This document shows positions 1 through 63,333 of a stretch of 64,000 bases of DNA, piece by piece (within the stretch, counting starts at the first letter, position 1; each line of letters begins with the position of its first letter). The translations under genes and the position numbers were made by a program. Under the pieces are notes generated by a model, which worked only from the letters and a program-made list of their open reading frames with translations, was not told where the DNA came from and made no database searches. Origin of the DNA: an uncultured delta proteobacterium (GTDB taxonomy: Bacteria; Desulfobacterota; Binatia; UBA9968); contig CAWFJP010000018.1 in the NCBI GenBank assembly GCA_963816145.1, positions 128,001 to 192,000 on the forward strand, given 5' to 3'.

Positions 1-252
1 TCTTAGGCGGGATCGATCCATGTGAGTCAATCTAGCGGATGGCGGCAGCATCTTGTCGAACCGACGGCGACTTCGCTAAAGCAGCCTCGTTCTGGAAAAC
101 CTCTAATTCTTCGCTCATGCGATGATTGCCACCACTTTCGAATGCTCTCCGCGGTGACCATTCCCGAAAAAGCCGCACTGTTCAAGAGCGCGAAGTTCCC
201 GGTCCAGGACACCACTCCGGTTCCCATCGTTCCATGGGTTCCATCAAGCTAG

Positions 253-441
253 TCAGTTAAGATCTTTGCCGTAGCGCGCGGCGCGTTCTTCGACCAAAAA
301 GCCGATCTTGCGCTTCTTGGGCTCCGGCGGGGTCATCAACTGGCGGATGGCTTCGAACAGCGATCGAATGTGGACGTCATGGCTCTCCAATTTGCGCTCC
401 AACGCGTCGAGCTTGCGGGCCAAATCCATATTGGACGCGAT
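253..441 (-). pseudogene. C-terminal fragment of an ORF6N-domain-like protein, copy 1
   Basis: Manual translation [62 protein letters not shown]; 5' end abuts the repeat at 443; resembles typical ORF6N protein C-termini. Confidence 0.65.
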
Positions 442-664
442 CGTTCCAATGGTTCCAGTCGTTCCAAAGGCTCCAGCAGTTCGGTTTCCTAGGATCGTTC
501 AAGTGTTCAACTAGCGTTAAGCATGGCTTCGGGCGACTCGGGAGCAAAGATAAAGGCGGAAGCATGGGGCGATTCGGCTCAACGGTTCCCTTCGGCGGGC
601 GCAGGGCCTGAGTTTATCGAGGCAACAGTTCAGACGTTTAACGATGGACTCGGAGGGGTGTCGC

Positions 665-874
665 TCATTTACCGGCGGTTAACTCGGCTTCAAGGGCCGC
701 TCCTTGCGAAACCGGCTAACGCCGAGAATGCGGAATCCAACCAACTGTCCATGCTCGTCGACTCGCTCCATGAGCGCGTCGTGGGCGGTTTCGCGCATGA
801 ACCCGGCGGCATCGCTGAACCGTACTTCTAAAAAGTCACCTCGGGATCGCACCAGACTTTTACTTATCGGCCAT
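665..874 (-). pseudogene. Frameshifted DUF2283-like antitoxin
   Basis: Across frameshifts reads MADK-VKVW-DP-GDFLEVRFSDAAGFMRETAHDALMERVDEHGQLVGFRILGVSRFRK-PLEAELTAGK*. Confidence 0.6.
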
Positions 875-960
875 ACGATTTCTCCTGCTATTCACAGTGT
901 CCGTCAAATACGCGGTAATGACAAAAGGATCACTCGGCAAATACTTTACCACCACGCACC
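860..960 (-). pseudogene. 3' fragment of a DUF4258/BrnT-like toxin partner
   Basis: CVVVKYLPSDPFVITAYLTD immediately upstream of and overlapping the DUF2283-like gene; no 5' part. Confidence 0.45.
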
Positions 961-992
961 GAATTAAAGATATCGAGCGCGCTATTTGAAAG

Positions 993-1403
993 TTATCGGG
1001 CCGGTATGATCGCAAAGCGACCGAGCCTGGCTGGCCGATAAACCTGAAAATCACGACGGTCGAGGGTGAAGATTCGCCGCAACCGTTCGCGCTCGGCAAC
1101 GCGAACCAAGGCGCCGTCCGCCAGATCCATCGGCAAATCGCGGTACTTGCGCATCAATTCTCTAATGCGCGGGACGTCCTCAATGCCTAACGGCAGGATC
1201 TCTATCGCGCCGGTCGCGATCATTTCCCAAAGCGCATCCTGGGCGCGCCAAGAAAAATTCAAAAGGTGCAGGGCTTCGGTGACTACGGGCCACACCGTGC
1301 CAAGCGGTTCGTCGAGCGCGGCAAAGGCGTCTCGACAACGCTCATGTTGATTGTCGTCTTGGTGGATGAGGGCGATCAACGGCCCGGCGTCGACAAGGAT
1401 CAT
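993..1403 (-). CDS. vapC: PIN-domain (VapC-like) toxin
   Basis: MILVDAGPLIAL, VVTEA, MDLADGALV, IFTLDRRDF PIN motifs; overlaps the antitoxin stop. Confidence 0.9.
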   Translation of the reverse strand: MILVDAGPLIALIHQDDNQHERCRDAFAALDEPLGTVWPVVTEALHLLNFSWRAQDALWEMIATGAIEILPLGIEDVPRIRELMRKYRDLPMDLADGALVRVAERERLRRIFTLDRRDFQVYRPARLGRFAIIPAR

Positions 1404-1666
1404 CGACGCTTGCGGGCGCGCTCGACAAGCATTTCGCGGACCTTCTTGCCCGTATCTATGGAAAGATCCCGGGGTCCGCCTTTGACACAGCCAATCAGAT
1501 GAGCCACCAGATCATACGGGCGCGTTTTCACCGCGCCCGTCCCTTCCTGTTTGGCAAGCACACCGATCGCGTCCCGGATGACTTCCGATTTGGTTTGTCG
1601 TCTTCTGCGAGCCAACCGCCCGATCAACGACTCCGTCTTTTGATCTAACCGAACGCTTAAAGGCAT
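1400..1666 (-). CDS. Ribbon-helix-helix (CopG-like) antitoxin
   Basis: LSVRLD...LARRRRQTKSEVIRDAI; upstream of the PIN toxin. Confidence 0.85.
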   Translation of the reverse strand: MPLSVRLDQKTESLIGRLARRRRQTKSEVIRDAIGVLAKQEGTGAVKTRPYDLVAHLIGCVKGGPRDLSIDTGKKVREMLVERARKRR

Positions 1667-2226
1667 AAACGCGGCGCCCCCATGTGATACAGCAGTGTAC
1701 TACAAACCAGCTCAAGACCTCAATACAGCATTCTATGAATAGAAGCCGTTCCAAGTGTTCGAGACCTTCGATACGGTCTTTGCGACCTACTCAGGGCGAA
1801 CGGAATTTTTTAATTGGGGTCCGTTCAAGTCCTTACTCGATCAAGGTCGTCGGGGCCGTTCCAATGGTTCCAGCCGTTTCAATAGTTCCAATCGTTTCAG
1901 AGGTTCCAGCGGTTATCGATCAAGAAGCGCTCAAGAACAGATTCGGGAGGGTTTACCGATCGGGGTCTGTTCAAGGGTTCAAAACGGTAGAAACTACGGC
2001 CTGACAATACGGCAATCGGTCATGACGTGAAGCCGATCAGTCGAGCGACTGGTCGATTCCCTGCTTTTCGTAATGCAATTCGTGCATCAGTCTGCTGACG
2101 TTACCTAATTCACTACCCAATGAACTAGGTACTACCTATTTCCATTTAGCGGTTCGCTGCCACTCCGCGCTTTGACCGCGGCGTAGGAATCTAACGCCTA
2201 GACGCAGGTCCGGAACCAGCACCGCT

Positions 2227-2634
2227 CTATGGTTTTTCCGTTAAAGTCTTGACGAGCGATCGAATCTCGCGAAGAAACTCCTCGCAATCTTCAAGTTGCT
2301 GGCGCACGTATGGCTCATCGAATTTTACGAATTCGATGTAGTCGCCTTCTTGCCGGTCCCGAAACAGACGGTTGTACAGATCGCCATGTTTTCGAGCGAG
2401 TCTGCCGGTTTTGATGAGGTGTTGGTTAAAACTGGCACGCACACCGCTGTGCTTCCGGAATCGACGCCCGTCCTCCAAAAGCAAAGCGCTCACCGCGTAG
2501 AAAGCAGCATAATATGCGCGGTTGATCGCGAAAGAGAAAGATTTCGCGGCAAGGTCTCTATGGGCGGCTTCCAAGCTTTCAACGGCTTTGTCCCACCAGT
2601 AGCGAATCGCTTCTGCTTTGGCGTCATTTTTCAG
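2227..2634 (-). CDS. HEPN-domain protein (MNT-HEPN pair)
   Basis: AINRAYYAAFYAVSALL, KHSGV, LFRDRQEGDY; start uncertain (CTG overlapping the MNT stop chosen). Confidence 0.85.
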   Translation of the reverse strand: MKNDAKAEAIRYWWDKAVESLEAAHRDLAAKSFSFAINRAYYAAFYAVSALLLEDGRRFRKHSGVRASFNQHLIKTGRLARKHGDLYNRLFRDRQEGDYIEFVKFDEPYVRQQLEDCEEFLREIRSLVKTLTEKP

Positions 2635-2975
2635 AGCGAAACGCCCTCTTCTTCGATGATCTTGTGAATCGGCAGGGCGGAGGGAATGCCGTGATCCCAT
2701 GTGTCGCGGTCAACGATCAACTCGCTGAGGTTCGTTCCATGGGCAAGATTCAGATCAAGGATCATGCTCGAAATCCGATCGCGATTCCGATGACTGGCCG
2801 GCTCAGCCAGGACGATTAACAGATCCTCGTCCGATCCCTCGCTCGCCGCTCCTCGAACGATCGAACCGAAGAGCAAGATACGATCGATATTGAATTCTTT
2901 GGTGAGCCGCTCTTGGGCTGCACGAAGTGCGTCACTGACATTCTGCGGAAGCTTAAGATCGTCGAGCCTTTTCAC
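2631..2975 (-). CDS. Minimal nucleotidyltransferase (MNT)
   Basis: ILLFGSIVRG...SDEDLLIV motif; coupled to HEPN. Confidence 0.88.
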   Translation of the reverse strand: MKRLDDLKLPQNVSDALRAAQERLTKEFNIDRILLFGSIVRGAASEGSDEDLLIVLAEPASHRNRDRISSMILDLNLAHGTNLSELIVDRDTWDHGIPSALPIHKIIEEEGVSL

Positions 2976-3046
2976 AGATCACCCCCGGTAGAAGGCCATC
3001 ATACGCTTATTTCTACCCTCAATTAACGGTACTACGCTTTCTCCCC

Positions 3047-3235
3047 TTATATTGCCAGGCGGAGGGATGGGCTTTTCTTCGTCGACGGCCCGCGCATCTT
3101 CTTCAATTCCTGAATCGGGTCGCCATCTCGCTTCTTCCACCGGCCGCGCGCCCTCGCCCAGATCGTCAACCGCTCTTTGCCTTTGATGATTGGCGAGATG
3201 CACGAATGTGACAGAGGTTGAGCGCGTTTTGCCAT
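3047..3235 (-). CDS. Small basic antitoxin-like protein, possibly degraded
   Basis: ERLTIWARARGRWKKRDGDPIQELKKMR resembles short orphan antitoxins; TA context. Confidence 0.35.
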   Translation of the reverse strand: MAKRAQPLSHSCISPIIKGKERLTIWARARGRWKKRDGDPIQELKKMRGPSTKKSPSLRLAI

Positions 3236-3724
3236 GCTGAAATAATATATCAGGCGCATTGGGGTGAAAAGAGCCGACGCCGCCCGGCAAGCTCGAGAGT
3301 GGGGACTGTTCCGTCATGCCTTATACTTCCAATCGTTCCACTGCTTGCAGCGGTTAGATGTTGCTGAATCGTCCAAAGGTTCAAGGTCAAATCCGGACGG
3401 TTAGCGTTCCAACGGTTCCAGTCGTTCCATGGGTTCCAGCGGTTAGCCTTCATAAGGTCGTTCAAGGGTTCAAAAAATCTAAAGATCGGCCCGTTCAAAT
3501 CGTTATCGGATCAGGTCGTCGGGGCCGTTCCAATCGTTCCAGCCGTTTCAAAAGTTCCAATCGTTTCGATTAGGAGGGATACCGTTCCAATAGTTCCAAT
3601 GGTTCCATCGGTTCCAGTAGCTGGTTCGGATCGTTCAAAGGTTCAAAGTTCAAGAGTTCACGGACGGATTCGGACGGAAACTGCCACGTTGGCGCAATTT
3701 CGAATACGCGGAGACGAACGCCGG

Positions 3725-3880
3725 CTAGCGATTGCCGTAGCGCGCGGCGCGCTCTTCGACCAAAAAGCCGATCTTGCGCTTCTTGGGCTCCGGCGGGGTC
3801 ATCAATTGGCGGATGGCATCGAAGACTACCTTGAATTGCGCGTCGTATTTCTTCTCCAATGCTTCCAACTTGCGGGCAAG
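3725..3880 (-). pseudogene. C-terminal fragment of an ORF6N-domain-like protein, copy 2
   Basis: [51 protein letters not shown]; ~90 bp nearly identical to copy 1; bounded by repeats. Confidence 0.7.
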
Positions 3881-4126
3881 TCGATCGTTGGAAGTTCAAA
3901 AGTTCAACGACAGATTCGGAAGGATACCGTTCCAATAGTTCCAGTCGTTCCACAGGTTCCAGCGGTTGGGCTTCCTAGGATGGTTCGAAGGCTCAACGAC
4001 GATTCCGCAAGGCCACCGTTCCGATGGTTGCTGTCGTTCCAGTGGTTCCAATCATTCCAGCAGCTGCTGCACAAGGGTTTATTGACTCAATCGCCTGTGT
4101 TGTCGAGGAGATTTGAGAATCGCCGG

Positions 4127-5491
4127 TTAGTTTTTCGCAGCGGGCGTCGCGCGCGTGGTTGTAGCGTTGACCTGCTCCGCAAACAACGGGCAATCGCGCG
4201 CGAGTTTGGTCAACTGACGCGATGCCACCACCCGATGTTCCCTGACGTAGGACTCGTGGTTGGCGTCGACATCACCGAGCCGATAGAGGTAATTGACCAT
4301 GATTCCGGCACAGCGCTTCAAGCCCTGCTGTGAAATATCCGCGAGCCAATTGATCCGTTCGAGCTGCGCGCCGTTGCCAAGGTGGAATCGTGCCACAGAG
4401 TCAGCCGGCTCCGCTTCTTGTTTTACGAAAAGTAGGTAATAGGCGCACAACGACATCAGATCGGGCTCAAGGCGAGCGCTATACTTGCGTTTGAACCATT
4501 CGTCGTCCTCCAGCCACTTGAGCGCTTCGCTCACGGCCCTTCCGGCGGCAGTCGATGCGAGCAAGTCTTTGACGGAGGCGAGCCAGGCGCCGAAGCCGGG
4601 AACCGGCGACAAGGTGGCAAACTGCCTGATGCGCGGAAACTCCTGGCCGAGCTCTCGGGCCACCTGTTTGATCAGCAAATTGCCGAACGGTATGCCGCGC
4701 AGGCCTTCTTGACAGCTGGTGATTGAATAAAACATCGCCGTGTCCGCGGCTTCCGGATCCGCTACCGGGGAATCCAGATCGAGCAGTGGTTGCACTGCCG
4801 TGCTGATACCCTTGGTGAGCGCCACCTCGATGAAAATGATCGGCTGTCCCGGCAGCGCGGGATGAAAGAAAGCGAAACAACGGCGATCGGCTTCAAGGCG
4901 CCGGCGCAAATCCGTCCAGCTGGCGATTTCATGGACGGCTTCGTAGTGAATAAGCTGTTCAAGGATGATAGCCGGTGTATGCCAGTCGATCCGCTCAAGC
5001 TTGAGAAAGCCAGGATTGAACCAGGAGCGGAATAATTGGACAAGGTCGGCGTCGATAACCCGCCACTCTGGATGCGATTTGAGCCCTCTAAGCACGCCGC
5101 GCCGGATCGCCACCAAGGTGGTTGTGCCGCCGGGCGCGATGTTGAGGCGATGAAAAAGCTCCTGTCGCGGCGGCGCGACGACGCGCTGCAATTCAAGCAG
5201 GTTTTCTCGCGTCGGCTGATCGCGGTAACAATCCGCAACGCGCAAGACCTGCTGTGGATCGGGGGAGAATTCCGCTACCAGCAAGTCGAAGAAAAGCGCC
5301 ATCCCCGCTTCGGAAAGATCGTCACATGCGGCGAGCGCCGCGCGCGCGTGCACGGCGCCGGAAACCTCGCCGCGGTCCGACATGAGGGCTTGGCAGAGTA
5401 CAATAGCTTTCCTTGCCTGGCGACTCAGACGCGCCCGTCCACTCGGATTGGCGGATACGATCAAACGTTTTAGAAATGAAGTGGCGTCCAT
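4127..5491 (-). CDS. Malonyl-CoA decarboxylase
   Basis: YEAVHEI, DRRCFAFFHP, FIEVALT, FYSI...GLRGIPFGNLLIKQV, TLSPVPGF, VARFHLGNGA motifs. Confidence 0.92.
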   Translation of the reverse strand: MDATSFLKRLIVSANPSGRARLSRQARKAIVLCQALMSDRGEVSGAVHARAALAACDDLSEAGMALFFDLLVAEFSPDPQQVLRVADCYRDQPTRENLLELQRVVAPPRQELFHRLNIAPGGTTTLVAIRRGVLRGLKSHPEWRVIDADLVQLFRSWFNPGFLKLERIDWHTPAIILEQLIHYEAVHEIASWTDLRRRLEADRRCFAFFHPALPGQPIIFIEVALTKGISTAVQPLLDLDSPVADPEAADTAMFYSITSCQEGLRGIPFGNLLIKQVARELGQEFPRIRQFATLSPVPGFGAWLASVKDLLASTAAGRAVSEALKWLEDDEWFKRKYSARLEPDLMSLCAYYLLFVKQEAEPADSVARFHLGNGAQLERINWLADISQQGLKRCAGIMVNYLYRLGDVDANHESYVREHRVVASRQLTKLARDCPLFAEQVNATTTRATPAAKN

Positions 5492-6001
5492 GCGGTGTCT
5501 CCTGGTCCAAGCTCTGTCTGGGATGGCGATTGGAATCGACCGGCTGTCGGGTTCATCGCGCCTGTCGCAAAAACGTCGGTCAAATTGCCGTCAAATGTGA
5601 GCCCCTGCGTCACCTTTATCGGCGGCCTCTGGCCGCTAGCGCCTTTCGGACAGGGTCGTCGCTCACCCAATGAAAGCAAAAGTCGACGATCGACCCGCCA
5701 TCAGGGAGTGTTCCAGCCGCCAACTAAAGTTTGCAAAAAAGCGCGCTCTCATTCAAACACCTGCGTAAAATATTTACCGCGGTGGGTTGATTGCTCAGCG
5801 CGACCGCCCGCGCGACAATCACGTTCAAACAGCTCGACTTTCTTCAGCCAGGTTTCGCCTTCATCCGGGTCGGACCCGGCTTACTGCGAGGAATCGCAGC
5901 CTTGTCGTCTTATAAGACTGTGTTATCGGATCTTATAGCGTCATTCTCACCGGCAAAATAGCCATCAACTATCGAGATCGGAACCGATTCAGAAGAAGAC
6001 C

Positions 6002-6040
6002 GTTCCAATAGTTCCAGGGGTTCCATCGGTTCCAGTAGTT
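6002..6040 (+). repeat. GTTCCA 9-bp tandem repeat cluster
   Basis: gttccaata gttccaggg gttccatcg gttccagta, similar to 3584-3620. Confidence 0.85.
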
Positions 6041-6310
6041 TGATAGTCGACGGCAGCACTGAGTCGCGGCGCGAGCTCTAACGAGACTCTAGGACCCAAA
6101 AGAAACGCGCCGAACAGATTTGGGCAGTGTATTTTCGCTGAATCGCCATGCTGCGGCGCCGCGGCACCACGCATGGTGATGCCCACCGCTGTTATCGCCG
6201 TGCTCATGCCCCGCTGCGGCCGCGATGAGATTCTCGCAGCCGGCAAACGCCCAGGCAGCTCCAGCGTAGAGAATCGAAAAGCAAATAGCGATGACAAGTG
6301 CGCGTTTCAT
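6041..6310 (-). pseudogene. Exported His-rich (metal-binding-like) small protein, frameshifted and running into the repeat
   Basis: Signal peptide MKRALVIAICFSILYAGAAWAFA, then GHEHGDNSGGHHHA; continues in another frame as GAAAPQHGDSAKIHCPNLF. Confidence 0.5.
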
Positions 6311-6350
6311 GTATAACCGAAATCGAAGCTAGCGCGCAGCGCCGCCCGTT

Positions 6351-7133
6351 TCAAGCCGCCGGCCGCGCCGGGCGCAGGCACAACATCAAAACCCCAAACC
6401 CAACCAGCAACATGCTGAACCACTGCGCCTCGGAAAAGCCGAAACCAAGCGATGGATTGATGCGCCAGAACTCGACGATGAAACGCATCAGCCCGGCGAG
6501 AATCAAATAGAGCCATGTGATAGTGCCCACCGCCAAGCCCTTCTTGCGCAGTGACCAGAGAATCGCAAAGACGAACAGACCCTGGAGAAACTCATAGATC
6601 GGCGTCGGATGGACGACTACACCCGAAGCGTAGGGAATTCCGGTGGTCGGATCGGCCCAGCCGACAATCGCCTTGGTGTAAGCCACGCCCCAGGGAACCG
6701 TCGTCACCGCGCCCCAGTCGCCGTCGCCGGCGAAGTGACAACCGAGGCGACCGATGCCGTAAGCCAAAGCCAGCGCCGGAAAAGTCATGTCGGCGCCGAC
6801 CAGCCAGGGAATTTTGTTTTTCCGCAGGACCCAACTCACCGCCGCAACGCCGCCAAAAAGACCGCCATACCAGGTAAACCCAGCGCCGGTAAAAATGTAG
6901 TGCATCGGCGCGGCGAGAAAACCCTGCCACTCCTCGACGATGAACAGCAAACGCGCCCCGACGAGGCCACCGAAAGCAGCGGCGAAAACCAGGGTCGAGG
7001 CTAACTCAGAATCGTAGCGGTAACGCTTTAGCTCGCACTTGACCACCCAAGCCGCGGCCAACGCCGCCACTGCCATGAAGGCGCCAAAGCTGTAAAGGGT
7101 CAGCGGTCCTAGCTGGAAGAGAATCGGGTACAT
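6351..7133 (-). CDS. lgt: Prolipoprotein diacylglyceryl transferase
   Basis: GARL, GFTWYGG, IGRLGC, HPTPIYE, RFIVEFWR. Confidence 0.93.
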   Translation of the reverse strand: MYPILFQLGPLTLYSFGAFMAVAALAAAWVVKCELKRYRYDSELASTLVFAAAFGGLVGARLLFIVEEWQGFLAAPMHYIFTGAGFTWYGGLFGGVAAVSWVLRKNKIPWLVGADMTFPALALAYGIGRLGCHFAGDGDWGAVTTVPWGVAYTKAIVGWADPTTGIPYASGVVVHPTPIYEFLQGLFVFAILWSLRKKGLAVGTITWLYLILAGLMRFIVEFWRINPSLGFGFSEAQWFSMLLVGFGVLMLCLRPARPAA

Positions 7134-13653: not shown

Positions 13654-13665
13654 AAGGTGCCAACT

Positions 13666-13769
13666 GTTCAAGGCGTTCAAAAAGTTCAAACCGTGGGTGT
13701 GAGTTGACTCTGGACTGACATCCGGAAAAACGGCTTGAACGATTTGAACGTTTGGAACAGCTTGAACGT
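13666..13769. repeat. Palindrome with GTTCAA tandem left arm and TTGAAC tandem right arm
   Basis: gttcaaggcgttcaaaaagttcaaac...cttgaacgatttgaacgtttggaacagcttgaac between convergent genes. Confidence 0.85.
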
Positions 13770-23734: not shown

Positions 23735-24376
23735 CTACTTCACCGGCGCCGTTGGGTTAGTGCTAACAATAATCCCTTGAGCTAAAATGGCCCCGTCTTC
23801 GCCTTGGCTCCCTTGGACTCTCAATTCCGCGCCTGGTTTGAGCATGTCGCGGCTTCCGCTCACGCGCTTCATGATCGGCGTGGTGGGGGGCACGAACACC
23901 TTCACTTCCCCGTCTTTGAATTTGAGAGTCAACATCCGTCCGTTGACGTCTTGTACCGTAAGATTTTCTATCGTTTCGACCGTCGCGTTGGTCATCGTGT
24001 GACTGGGGAGTGAAGTCTGAGGCCTATGCCCTTCTGACAACCCCCGCTCTTCCTCGCGAAAAATATTGATCTGCGCGGCGCGAAACGTACCGTCTGCCTG
24101 TTTCTGTGCTGAGGCGCCAACGAACACGCCTTGGGTAATGTCGGTAAGCCTGGCTGGCGCCTCGCCGACGATGCTAGTCCCCGAAGTCAACTTGACGGAA
24201 ACTTGCCCGGCATTAGTCGCGACCGACAGCGCCGGTTCTGTGTATGCAACAATTTTTCCTCTGATGGCGACCGCCGGTCCGGGCGAACTCACTTGAGCAT
24301 CCAGAATGGCGTCCCCCGGACGAAGCGCCGCAACAATCAACATTGAAAGAAAAACATATCGTAAAATCTGCATCAT
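23735..24376 (-). CDS. Exported DUF5666-like (OB-fold) protein, paralog A
   Basis: Signal peptide; KQADGTFRAAQINIF, EGHRP, MTNATV; strongly similar to 26720-27337. Confidence 0.75.
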   Translation of the reverse strand: MMQILRYVFLSMLIVAALRPGDAILDAQVSSPGPAVAIRGKIVAYTEPALSVATNAGQVSVKLTSGTSIVGEAPARLTDITQGVFVGASAQKQADGTFRAAQINIFREEERGLSEGHRPQTSLPSHTMTNATVETIENLTVQDVNGRMLTLKFKDGEVKVFVPPTTPIMKRVSGSRDMLKPGAELRVQGSQGEDGAILAQGIIVSTNPTAPVK

Positions 24377-24663
24377 GCACTCCTCGAGATTTGCCATAAG
24401 CGGGGCGCTGGCTTGGCCCGCATCACGAATCCATTGGCAACTCTAGCAGGATTTCAGCATTGCGGAAGTAGGCGGATTGGTTTTTGCGCCGAGGTATGCG
24501 AGAAAGTTTTGCAGAAACTACATTCTTGGTTAAAAAAGTGATTCGCCGGGGACAAGGGCATCCCCAACCCCCATTGTCAGGGTAAATCACCAGATTCCGT
24601 GACATTTGATAGATGATAAGGCGCCGGCAAATTCAAGAAAGATCGCTAAAAAATTATCCCTTG

Positions 24664-26719: not shown

Positions 26720-27337
26720 ATGAAAAAATCTACTTTAACGCGTGCATTAGTGGTGGCATTGGGGCTTGGAGCAGGATACGCCTTTCCCGCCAATGCCCAA
26801 CCCGCCCCCGCCGGCAATCCGACGAATGTTTCCGGCAAAGTCGTATCTATGAAAGGCCCGGAACTGGTCGTTGCGAGCCCTAGCGGCGACGCGAAAGTCA
26901 CTGTTGGCGAAAAGACCATCATCCGCGCCGAAGTGCCGATCAAATTTTCCGAGATCACTTCAGGCATGTATGTCGGAGCCACGGCAACCAAGCAGCCGGA
27001 CGGAACCTTTTTGGCTTCCCAAATCAACATTTTTTCCGAAGACCAGCGCGGTACCGGAGAAGGTCACCGACCGCTGGGTTCTGCTACAATGACCAACGCC
27101 AATGTCGAGCGCATCGAAGAGGTCACCGTGCGGGACGTCAAAGGCCGGATGATGAATCTCAAATATAAAGGCGGCGAGGTAAGCGTGCTCGTGCCGCCGG
27201 ACATCCCGATAAACAAACGAGTGGTGGGTGATCGCACCCTCATCAAAACTGGTTCAGTTGTGTCGATAACCGCGACTCAAGAAGCCGATGGTTCGCTGAC
27301 GGCACGACAGATCACCGTGCGTGCGCCCAAGTTCTAA
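26720..27337 (+). CDS. Exported DUF5666-like protein, paralog B
   Basis: Signal peptide; KQPDGTFLASQINIF, GEGHRP, MTNANV. Confidence 0.75.
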   Translation: MKKSTLTRALVVALGLGAGYAFPANAQPAPAGNPTNVSGKVVSMKGPELVVASPSGDAKVTVGEKTIIRAEVPIKFSEITSGMYVGATATKQPDGTFLASQINIFSEDQRGTGEGHRPLGSATMTNANVERIEEVTVRDVKGRMMNLKYKGGEVSVLVPPDIPINKRVVGDRTLIKTGSVVSITATQEADGSLTARQITVRAPKF

Positions 27338-35089: not shown

Positions 35090-35599
35090 TCAAGACAACT
35101 GATGACAGAGGAAAGCACCACCAGAGAACTGATCGATTGAGAACTTGAACGGGAAACCCGGCCTCAGCGGGCCGCAACTTTCAACGACTGGCGCGCCATC
35201 AAATCGTTGACCACTTCCAACTTCGTCCTTCGTGATATACCGTCCGGAGATTCTCAGCCCCTCGCTAAATTGCTCCTTGGCGCCCCGTTGGCTTCGGATT
35301 CGTGTCTCTTCCTCGGCCAGATCGTAGGACACGGCGATGCGCGCGCGCTCCTTACTGACCAAGGCGCGGCCCTGCTCGGAATCCGGCACACGCAATACGC
35401 TGTACGTCGTCCCCAGGTCCGCGGGATCGAACAGGATCACTTCGCCGAAACTACGGCGCGTGAACACTTGCTTCCAGAAGTCCACTGCGCCCTGCAACCC
35501 GGCGGGCACTGGGAACAGAGTTTCTCGGGCGCAAACCGCCACAGGCAAGCGACCGAGAGCCAGCAAAATGAAAAATAAAGAGAATAAGTATCGAGACAT
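35090..35599 (-). pseudogene. Lytic transglycosylase (MltD-like) N-terminal part lacking the SLT domain
   Basis: FPVPAGL..VDFWKQVF, RIRSQRG..F.EGL..SGRY, then similarity stops. Confidence 0.55.
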
Positions 35600-38187: not shown

Positions 38188-38977
38188 GGCATGGCTCTGC
38201 GCCGGCGCGTCAATTTTGCTTTTGCTGCTGGCCGCAGCGGTGGGCGCGCCGATCATCGCGCCGCACAATCCCTCACGGCAAGATTTGGCCAACGATCTGA
38301 TCGCCTATAGCGCCGATCATCTGCTCGGCACCGATAAACTCGGCCGCGACATCTTGAGCCGGACGCTTTATGGCGCGCGCATCTCACTTTCGGTCGGCTT
38401 TGCCACCGTCGCATTGTCACTCGCCATCGGCCTGATCGCCGGATCACTGGCCGGCTACTTCGGCGGCTGGATCGATCTCCTGCTGATGCGCCTGGTCGAC
38501 ATCCTATTGGCGTTTCCTGGCATTCTCTTGGCCATCGCCTTCACCGCCGTGCTCGGCCCAGGTCTCGATCATGTCATTCTTGCGCTTTGTCTGATCGGCT
38601 GGACCGGCTACGCCCGTCTGGTGCGCGGTGAAATCATCGCGTTGCGCGAACGAGAATTTATCCACGCCGCCCGCGCTCTCGGCGGCGCGCCAAGCCGCGT
38701 GATCCTGCGCCACCTCTTGCCGAATCTTTTGGCGCCGCTCTTGATCCAAGCGACCTTCGGCCTCGCCGCTGCGATCATCGCCGAAGGCAGCTTGAGTTTC
38801 CTCGGCCTGGGCGTCGAACCGCCAACGCCGTCCTGGGGATCGATGTTAAACGACGGCCGTCAGTTCCTGCTTGTCGCGCCGCATCTCACCACCTATCCAG
38901 GGCTGGCGATCATGGTCACAGTTTTTGCCCTCAATCTGGTGGGCGACGGGCTGCAGGAACGCCTCGGAAGGCAATAG
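38177..38977 (+). CDS. Peptide ABC permease (DppC-like)
   Basis: LGTDKLGRDILSR, LSFLGLG, PSWG. Confidence 0.93.
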   Translation: MASKAWLCAGASILLLLLAAAVGAPIIAPHNPSRQDLANDLIAYSADHLLGTDKLGRDILSRTLYGARISLSVGFATVALSLAIGLIAGSLAGYFGGWIDLLLMRLVDILLAFPGILLAIAFTAVLGPGLDHVILALCLIGWTGYARLVRGEIIALREREFIHAARALGGAPSRVILRHLLPNLLAPLLIQATFGLAAAIIAEGSLSFLGLGVEPPTPSWGSMLNDGRQFLLVAPHLTTYPGLAIMVTVFALNLVGDGLQERLGRQ

Positions 38978-39095
38978 CTCAAACCGTTCAAATCGCTCAA
39001 TCGCTGCGCTCCGTTCAAACCGTTTTCGGACCGGAAGTTTTTTTCAATTTCTGACAATTTGAACGGCTTGAACGTTTTGAACGAATTGAACGAGC
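38977..39095. repeat. Palindrome with GTTCAA / TTGAAC tandem arms
   Basis: gctcaaaccgttcaaatcgctcaatc...ttgaacggcttgaacgttttgaacgaattgaac. Confidence 0.85.
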
Positions 39096-39157
39096 TCAAC
39101 TAGATTGCCTAACCCGGCTCACGATGGTAATTAGCAAGGAATCAGGAGGTCACGTCC

Positions 39158-39718
39158 ATGAAACTTTACACCAGCTACACTTGACCCTACGCCCACAGGA
39201 CAAGGATTGTCCTGTCCGAAAAGAAAATCCCCTATGAAACGATCGAAGTCGATCTCAAGCATAAGCCCGAGGATCTCGTCAAGCAGAACCCCTACGGTAA
39301 AGTGCCGGTTTTGGTCGACGGCGACGGCGTCATCTACGAGTCGGCCGTGATCAACGAGTATCTCGACGAAAAGTTCACCAATGTGCCGCTCATGCCGCGC
39401 AGTCAACTCGACCGCGCCAAGGTGCGAATCTGGGTCGACTTCTTCAACACCCGAGTCCATCCGACCGGCAGCGATCTGCAGAAAGATCGCGATCCGGAAA
39501 AAGCCCGCGCGCGCATGGCCCAGCACCTGCGCACGATTGACGACGCCTTGGCCGGCAGAGACTATTTAGTCGGGGATCAAATTTCGCTAGCGGATGTAAC
39601 GTTCATCCCCTTTTACACTAGGCGAGAACGCTACAAAGTAACGTTTGACGACTATCCCAACATCGAGCGTTGGGCGGAGAATCTCATCGCGCGCCCGCAG
39701 GTCGCGCCGACTCTATAA
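39158..39718 (+). CDS. Glutathione S-transferase selenoprotein (Sec at TGA 39182-39184)
   Basis: AGGAGGT RBS; MKLYTSYT-U-PYAHRTRIVLSEKKIPYE...NPYGKVPVL in frame with ORF 39302-39718; perfect hairpin at 39195-39215. Confidence 0.88.
39195..39215 (+). promoter_or_regulatory. SECIS-like hairpin of the GST gene
   Basis: acaggacaa-gga-ttgtcctgt: 9-bp perfect stem 10 nt after the UGA, G-led loop. Confidence 0.7.
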
Positions 39719-63054: not shown

Positions 63055-63333
63055 ATGATGACTGACCAACAATTGATATCTCGGGTGCGAGTCGATCCCG
63101 AGATCTGCTCGGGCCGCCCTTACATTCGCGGTACGAGAATTCAGATCGCAGTCATTCTTGACGCCCTCAGCGGGGGCTTGTCGCCGCGAGAAGTCCTCGA
63201 TCACTACCCCGATCTGGATGCCGACGACCTTCGCGCCGCGGTCGCCTACGCCTGCAAGCTCGCTCGAGAGAATGGCGGTTTGGCGGTGCTTGACCCGCGA
63301 CGCGGTATCAAAGAGAGTTTTCAGCTAAGATGA
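63055..63333 (+). CDS. DUF433 domain protein
   Basis: DPEICSGRPYIRGTRI, YPDL..DDLRAAVAY. Confidence 0.88.
   Translation: MMTDQQLISRVRVDPEICSGRPYIRGTRIQIAVILDALSGGLSPREVLDHYPDLDADDLRAAVAYACKLARENGGLAVLDPRRGIKESFQLR

Follow-up and report, generated by a model that had tools for sequence, protein, structure and literature searches.

Short repeats that gather between bacterial genes include the REP, BIME and REPIN elements of Enterobacteria and Pseudomonas, which are short, high-copy and extragenic, form inverted hairpin doublets and local clusters, and act as sites of rearrangement. Here we describe a repeat array at the left end of a 64,000-nucleotide stretch from an uncultured delta proteobacterium of the Binatia (contig CAWFJP010000018.1, positions 128,001 to 192,000; hereafter the window). 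In this array, clusters of the hexamer GTTC(C/A)A (GTTCMA), repeated with a 9-bp period and here termed arms, lie between toxin-antitoxin genes and gene remnants. The arms are members of a large, dispersed intergenic family of the form (GTTCMA-RHC)x4-GTT and are not specific to this locus. We put at about one in two the probability that the array arose when single arms of this family, which resembles REP elements and miniature inverted-repeat transposable elements (MITEs), piled up through duplication, and that arm termini serve as junctions at which DNA is deleted or joined.

Like REP and REPIN sequences, the family is extragenic, high-copy and built of inverted hairpin doublets, although this holds for the family and not for the focal array, which is all in one orientation. 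REP elements are small palindromes with a conserved head, whereas the arms consist of four direct nonamers in which the hexamer alone is conserved, and no RAYT-type gene is seen near them. MITEs provide a second parallel through their inverted terminal arms, short or cargo-bearing interiors, intergenic placement and truncation of genes at their ends; the present family differs in lacking target-site duplications in 26 pairs, in having no parent insertion sequence that we could find and in having genome copies that are not near-identical. At the ends of IS607-family elements, four direct short repeats spaced by about one helical turn nucleate cooperative transposase binding, and the likeness to our arms extends to a lack of target-site duplications (PMC6188088). 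The IS607 motifs are 9 bp long, phased at about 10 bp and placed beside tnpA/tnpB in the same account (PMC6188088), whereas the arms have a 6-bp core, a 9-bp period and no serine recombinase in view. The TAACTGA heptamer of Beggiatoaceae, Cyanobacteria and Bacteroidetes forms intergenic direct repeats, mostly just upstream of start codons; it shares with our family a short motif, small direct-repeat sets, intergenic position, occurrence in distant phyla and the lack of a known mechanism, and differs from nonamers that carry free spacers, come mostly as four units and usually form inverted pairs (PMC4679880).

GTTCMA occurs 124 times in the window, compared with 59.4 ± 8.4 times in 100 shuffles of the 64-kb sequence (maximum 78; 0 of 100 reach 124). 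Within bases 1-6040 the + strand carries 51 occurrences and the - strand 2 (binomial probability about 1e-13, by hand arithmetic), the two exceptions, at 4491 and 5016, both lying within the malonyl-CoA decarboxylase (MCD) gene; the remaining 71 are dispersed across the other 58 kb. Between 220 and 6034, a chain search that allowed at most one mismatch per unit and required 9-bp steps and at least three units per chain identified nine chains on the + strand, six of them with exactly four units, and no chain on the - strand. No inverted units of the array's type are found within 1-7000. Bases 1-6040 are a polar, non-random repeat cluster, in agreement with a preliminary description, made from the letters alone, that had reported dozens of + strand units in clusters; its statement that the genes between the repeats lie on the - strand holds for every gene with a family match.

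The same description had seen no attC site, CRISPR spacing or integrase, and each of these negatives stands. The polar modules fold no better than shuffled sequence (z +0.65, +0.89 and -0.51), the units are 9 bp long and no cas families occur in the window. A family-library scan of 17 + 66 open reading frames (ORFs) across the 64 kb gave no integrase, transposase or other recombinase family, and no IntI-type tyrosine recombinase lies beside the array within the window, although the array may extend beyond base 1. Searches against Rfam returned no match (1-7000 at E<=1; the whole window at gathering score), and ARAGORN found no tRNA gene in the window that could anchor an island. A coding origin was rejected: read on the - strand the arms give Gly-Thr-x repeats, yet they are short and sit between well-defined genes. 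The idea that TTGAAC units act as -35 boxes was dropped, since promoter-like sites are not enriched in the array (4, compared with 2.7 ± 1.7 in shuffles).

The local array grew by segmental duplication. Its arms fall into subtypes by spacer sequence, with 8-9 of 12 spacer positions in common among the alpha arms (443, 3406 and 3929) and 10 of 12 in both the beta (1858 and 3527) and gamma (3584 and 6002) pairs, compared with 5.1 ± 1.8 of 12 for unrelated arms. Longer junction blocks had been reported to recur at 443, 3406 and 3929 and at 1846 and 3514, and alignment bears this out: 442-510 matches 3405-3473 at 82.6% identity and 3371-3473 matches 3894-3996 at 78.6%, whereas 1844-1898 and 3513-3567 agree at 96% (88.9% over the longer pair 1818-1898 and 3488-3567). 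The gamma arm with its leader is also duplicated (3567-3620 and 5985-6038, 87% identity). A composite unit of about 100 bp comprises, in order, a GTTCAA doublet, a GATTCGGAAGG-type leader, a four-unit arm and a linker. An ORF6N gene tail together with its adjoining module is present twice (266-511 and 3732-3997, 77% identity over 272 columns); the 3' 92 nt of the second tail are 97% identical to the first, and this final part of the duplicated block is likely a conversion tract. Duplication of a few arm subtypes largely explains the local polarity, because duplication keeps orientation.

The breaks in genes at this locus coincide with arm termini. In three gene remnants the broken end lies no more than 2 nt from the terminus of an arm or module (441|443, 3895|3894 and 6040|6040); these are the two ORF6N tails and the His-rich gene that had been said to break off at a repeat edge. 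The first ORF6N remnant has lost its N-terminal DNA-binding domain, its homology beginning at 441 and the arm at 443; homology of the second begins at 3895 and the GTTCAA doublet at 3894. The best match of the tails is 98% identical, and there are 545 relatives at E<=0.001, some named Candidatus Binatia. Most of these relatives are on very short contigs, a placement typical of multi-copy genes. Homology of the His-rich secreted-protein pseudogene to a 119-aa relative ends at residue 79 of the latter, which corresponds to base 6040, the last base of the arm. Its missing C terminus was not found elsewhere in the window by tblastn (one chance-level match, E 6.5, at 35159-35209), and a frameshift near 6170 separates its two homologous pieces.

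Two toxin-antitoxin pairs and the MCD gene are bracketed by same-direction arms (Table 1). Family matches uphold the earlier identification of RHH-VapC and MNT-HEPN pairs; the assignments of the smaller ORFs fared less well. What had been called a DUF2283/toxin remnant consists of an ORF with a DUF2283 match below the Pfam cut-off and, beside it at 860-1099, a supposed toxin remnant for which Pfam at E<=5 gives no family match. The small ORF at 3047-3259, described as antitoxin-like, also has no family match, and Pfam at E<=5 gives nothing for this 70-aa ORF, a 112-aa ORF, the leftmost ORF or the + strand ORF 523-831. When PADLOC was applied to ten small ORFs of the array and its flanks (32-178 to 6089-6310), the nucleotidyltransferase alone was matched.

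Table 1. Features of the repeat array, its genes and the two hairpin-type family members in the window
Feature	Position	Strand	Remarks
Chains of at least three units, as start (units)	220 (3), 443 (4), 1858 (6), 3406 (4), 3527 (4), 3584 (4), 3929 (4), 4036 (3), 6002 (4)	+	
Short arm	220..243	+	3 units, GTTCCC/GTTCCA/GTTCCA; just downstream of ORF6N remnant 1
ORF6N remnant 1	253..441	-	homology 441-265 = residues 122-180 of 186-aa PF10543 proteins
Arm, subtype alpha	443..510	+	4 units 443-475, then GCAGTT, ~20-nt linker, GTTCAAgtGTTCAA (497-510)
Small ORF, weak DUF2283 match	679-852	-	19 bits against Pfam cut-off of 23, E 0.0016
PIN toxin, VapC-like	993-1403	-	family match
RHH antitoxin	1400-1666	-	overlaps PIN; family match
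Junction block, subtype beta	1818..1982	+	block 1818-1898, 6-unit arm 1858-1908, GTTCAAggGTTCAA (1969-1982)
HEPN	2227-2700	-	family match
MNT-type nucleotidyltransferase	2631-2975	-	paired with HEPN; family match; also PADLOC candidate family PDC-S09
70-aa ORF	3047-3259	-	no family match; may not be a gene
Gene-free module run	3323..3660	+	degenerate arm 3323-3356, alpha 3371-3473, beta 3488-3567, gamma 3568-3660
ORF6N remnant 2	3734..3895	-	residues 123-179 of 186-aa PF10543 proteins
Alpha module and degenerate arm	3894..4059	+	module 3894-3996, degenerate arm 4015-4059
MCD	4127-5491	-	both Pfam domains, apparently intact; same-direction arms on both sides
Gamma arm with leader	5986..6040	+	four units 6002-6034, then GTAGTT
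His-rich secreted-protein pseudogene	6040..6310	-	residues 1-46 + 48-79 of 119-aa relative
LGT	6351-7133	-	family match
Hairpin-type member	13657..13767	.	4 + 4 inverted units, 45-nt loop; between UbiD and 2Fe-2S gene
Hairpin-type member	38973..39093	.	four units facing four; after ABC permease gene

We surveyed the wider family in one genome per species, using as bait four exact GTTCMA units at a 9-bp period. This returned at least 125 stretches (loci L001-L123), many of them unrelated perfect microsatellites or coding repeats, from which 62 Binatia-like loci were chosen by eye (G+C 0.51-0.60, unequal spacers); all family statistics come from this sample, baited on exact four-unit matches and partly hand-picked, and the genes in it are longest-ORF guesses. 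None of the 123 loci covers the lgt-MCD locus. The 62 chosen loci are mostly labelled Binatia, 'Deltaproteobacteria bacterium', Syntrophobacter(aceae) or Thermodesulfobacteriota and show the same design as the window, and four-unit inverted pairs of a similar kind also occur in records from Vicinamibacterales and Chitinophagaceae. Full-text literature searches found no published description of the (GTTCMA-RHC)x4-GTT repeat.

Across 75 exact arms from these loci, the unit logo reads G-T-T-C-(A/C)-A-R-H-C with GTT after the fourth unit, an ending that the window's arms share. The 83 arms of 39 long-flank loci comprise 55 with four units, 13 with three, 12 with five, 2 with eight and 1 with six; the bait demanded four units, so this distribution is biased at its lower bound and not at its upper. 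The fifth hexamer position tends to be uniform within an arm, with 32 all-A and 16 all-C arms among the 75 (11.3 and 1.5 expected), and spacers are repeated within an arm less often than by chance (9 of 225 pairs, compared with 9% expected). The unit GTTCMARHC also resembles the loop consensus of the tRNA T-arm, G-T-psi-C-R-A-N-N-C.

Neighbouring arms usually face each other. Of 42 such pairs, including those of the window, 25 are in '+-' orientation (loops of 6-144 nt), 8 are '-+', 7 are '++', mostly from the window itself, and 2 are '--'; polarity is not a property of the family beyond this locus. For five of the six hairpin-type copies, folding is much stronger than for shuffled sequence (z -5.8 to -8.8); for the sixth, at 38970-39100 in the window, z is only -2.9. 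The spacers of paired arms show no covariation, their complementarity being 2.83 of 9 positions compared with 3.60 ± 0.34 when shuffled (18 pairs); the hexamers, rather than pairing, look to be what is conserved.

Element clusters are intergenic in 48 of 52 cases (29 between tandem, 11 between convergent and 8 between divergent genes), often fill a gap of 60-350 bp to within 5-30 bp of the genes, and recur in the flanks at about one further cluster per 24 kb. Toxin-antitoxin families account for none of the 100 ORFs within 200 bp of arms, and the few ABC ATPases among these ORFs give secondary AAA_21 matches. Elsewhere the family has no toxin-antitoxin preference, and the notion that the repeat is a cassette-specific site does not survive a comparison with its usual setting as inverted pairs between genes. 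Two of the 100 flanking ORFs are 23S_rRNA_IVP genes, the sole arm-enclosed genes. These S23p-like four-helix-bundle genes (L030 1930-2453 and L001 6001-6522) lie in the loop between inverted four-unit arms; the site is orthologous in the two genomes, whose identity there is 75%, and adjoins an imuB-like gene.

Comparison of orthologous sites reveals rapid turnover of the element. The flanks of the element in L027 (element at 6001-6126) and L068 (element at 1194-1392) are 93.5-94.5% identical in nucleotide sequence and carry the same two ABC-transporter genes, yet one site holds a single GTTCAA hairpin and the other a pair of GTTCCA hairpins that arose as tandem duplicates. By hand count, a switch from CAA to CCA has affected seven of eight aligned hexamers and no more than 9 of 24 bases in the spacers are shared, and the element has turned over far faster than its flanks have diverged; L116 and L123 show the same switch. 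Between L079 and L086, 96% identity stops exactly at the outer edge of an arm. The gap between imuA and lexA is 250 bp with a hairpin in L001 (8580-8830), whereas in L042 (909-6036) about 5 kb lie beside the hairpin, including HigB/HTH and Gp49/HTH_37 pairs and other small ORFs. In L059, a toxin-antitoxin island with ParE and PIN_3 is present, and so is an ORF6N gene that carries a frameshift and has arms after it; in neither L042 nor L059 do arms separate the individual toxin-antitoxin genes. A separate 14-bp tandem repeat is present at about 1075-1135 of L042. As the L042 insert, the L079/L086 break and the L027/L068 replacement show, DNA is gained and lost at arm-bearing sites.

Under the explanation that we favour, the family's usual form is an inverted arm pair, foldable as a hairpin and lodged in short intergenic spaces, much like a REP/REPIN element or a MITE. 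Here, segmental and tandem duplication multiplied three subtypes of arm, each with additional local linkers, and arm termini would be the points where DNA was lost or joined, so that both ORF6N tails and the cut-off His-rich gene now end against arms. Arms may have been inserted or recombined first and then have undergone arm-to-arm deletion or duplication; the driving force may be slippage, illegitimate recombination or an unlinked protein with affinity for the four phased hexamers. In unstable DNA, toxin-antitoxin pairs typically survive, and here they would stay because they resist loss. Growth of the same kind is seen elsewhere in the tandemly duplicated hairpin of L068 and in L055 (6001-6195) and L056 (5992-6074), where two or three same-direction arms follow in a run without a cassette; these runs also show that direct arrays can form on their own. 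An active process is favoured by the exact junctions, the replacement at a fixed site and the precedent of the IS607 transposase TnpA.

Several observations weigh against this explanation. The composite module of about 100 bp was not found outside the window, the arm part alone giving matches when all sampled loci were searched with nhmmer, and the mean spacer identity of the seven polar arms, at 5.76 of 12, is a slight excess over the background of 5.08. No transposase or recombinase adjoins any arm in the window or among the 100 flanking ORFs, and inspection of 26 inverted pairs by eye revealed neither a target-site duplication nor a conserved outer terminus. The dispersed arms of one genome have no spacers in common and are thus not recent copies. 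Finally, several arms keep their place between species (L041/L097, L037/L112 and downstream of lexA in L001/L042), a conservation that host function fits as well as an old mobile element does. The lack of a nearby enzyme and of target duplications, the age of the dispersed copies and their conserved positions argue against a simple transposon. The 100 flanking ORFs include no RAYT (Y1 transposase) gene, the window and the locus flanks gave no Resolvase-family match, and blastn gave no plasmid match for a hairpin copy and, for a polar module, no plasmid match and one chance-level 26-nt phage match.

An alternative that we consider unlikely is that the arms are host cis-elements, four-site arrays for a DNA-binding protein (nucleoid-associated, a regulator or of ORF6N/KilA-N type) that selection maintains, the array being a duplicated stretch of them. 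Such binding sites would account for hexamers that are conserved while spacers drift, for the exact 3-nt spacing and the four-unit preference, for arms of one type (all-A or all-C) with few internal spacer repeats, and for positions that are conserved between species; the spacers of paired arms are no more complementary than those of shuffled pairs, so that the hexamers rather than a hairpin look constrained. All three ORF6N copies, the two in the window and that of L059 (8035-8757), have arms within about 110 nt after them in the same relative orientation, although two of the three are related by duplication. Sites spaced at a 9-bp period, however, do not all fall on the same face of B-DNA, no binding protein was identified, and neither truncated genes at arm termini nor wholesale replacement at an orthologous site would be expected of a passive operator. 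Arms lie beside lexA in L001 and L042, and the LexA box of Alphaproteobacteria is GTTC-N7-GTTC; the idea that arms are LexA boxes was set aside on the differing spacing and the presence of arms everywhere.

It is quite unlikely, in our judgement, that an unlinked recombinase or transposase recognizes the four-nonamer arms as arrays and cuts at their termini, with the hairpins as its non-autonomous elements and with one-directional arrays arising where one-arm cargo circles integrate at resident arms. A dedicated integron-like cassette system, in which arms or modules would be the sites of such an unlinked site-specific enzyme and one-arm circles would integrate at a resident arm, leave their cargo between direct arms and be able to excise again, is doubtful indeed. 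Chromosomal integrons also have same-direction sites between promoter-poor cassettes, co-oriented genes and frequent toxin-antitoxin cassettes. Cargo at our locus sits between same-direction arms and occupies a comparable position within the module, preceded by the GTTCAA doublet and followed by the GATTCGGAAGG-type leader, with three junctions within 2 nt of arm termini, and the toxin-antitoxin island that adjoins the hairpin in L042 is missing from its ortholog L001. An enzyme that nucleates on four direct, phased 9-bp motifs has a precedent in the IS607-family TnpA (PMC6188088). The array nevertheless differs from an integron: it lacks IntI, its sites are not imperfect palindromes and show no fold, its repeat is also scattered among housekeeping genes, and its 'cassettes' include gene remnants as well as MCD, a metabolic gene that comes with 490 bp of upstream DNA. 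The 64 kb contain no recombinase, arms at other sites mostly form inverted pairs adjoining housekeeping genes and have no toxin-antitoxin link, the toxin-antitoxin genes of L042 and L059 are not individually separated by arms, and the arms of the array are duplicates of three subtypes. The preliminary description had proposed a directional hotspot of cassette accretion and deletion with integron-like logic; the rearrangement-hotspot part is supported by the duplications, the junctions and the L001/L042 and L079/L086 comparisons, and the integron-like part finds no such support.

We regard as very unlikely an RNA-level role, in which inverted pairs would be interrupted stems that are processed or that stabilize transcripts, as REP elements or RNase III-cut intervening sequences are, and the single arms of the array would place UGGAAC repeats in cassette mRNAs. 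The ORF-bearing S23p/IVP intervening sequences of 23S rRNA are cut by RNase III (PMC4990558), and the IVP gene found in an inverted-arm loop in two related genomes has their layout. The strong folding of five of the six hairpin-type copies points the same way. Our elements, however, lie outside rRNA, the window has no IVP gene, the focal array has no inverted arms and its polar modules show no fold beyond chance; spacers do not covary, Rfam gives no match, and 8 of 48 elements lie in divergent promoter regions. An assembly artefact or chance is hardly credible: frameshifts in two window genes could point to assembly indel errors, but copies that are 77-97% identical, and not identical, make collapse or chimeric joining unlikely, the enrichment is far beyond that of shuffles, and the same family is present in many independent assemblies.

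If undescribed, these arms are a widespread class of repeats that follows unusual rules: the hexamer is fixed, the period is exactly 9 bp, four units are preferred, spacers are free yet rarely recur within an arm, the fifth hexamer position of an arm is all-A or all-C, and elements at fixed sites are replaced faster than their flanks diverge. Such rules are a pointer to a specific protein partner, and at this locus they explain where genes are broken. In poorly known lineages of soil and groundwater, they also make the arms of use as markers of rearrangement junctions. Were an unlinked recombinase responsible after all, the arms would represent gene capture with integron logic, independent of attC and IntI and common to Binatia and several other phyla, with toxin-antitoxin pairs and even metabolic genes as captured cargo.

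A few further features of the window deserve mention. The glutathione S-transferase (GST) gene that follows the 39-kb hairpin looks frameshifted, with the ATG at 39160 and the GST ORF (39302-39718) in different frames; this frameshift and that of the His-rich gene may be assembly indel errors or mark real pseudogenes. An 88-aa ORF at 26395-26661 matches the C-terminal half of the AhpC/TSA profile alone (positions 66-124) and may be a gene fragment, and two DUF5666 paralogs lie near it, at 23735-24397 and 26720-27337. At the right end of the window, 63055-63333 encodes a small DUF433 protein, a family whose members are frequent antitoxin-like partners of PIN toxins.

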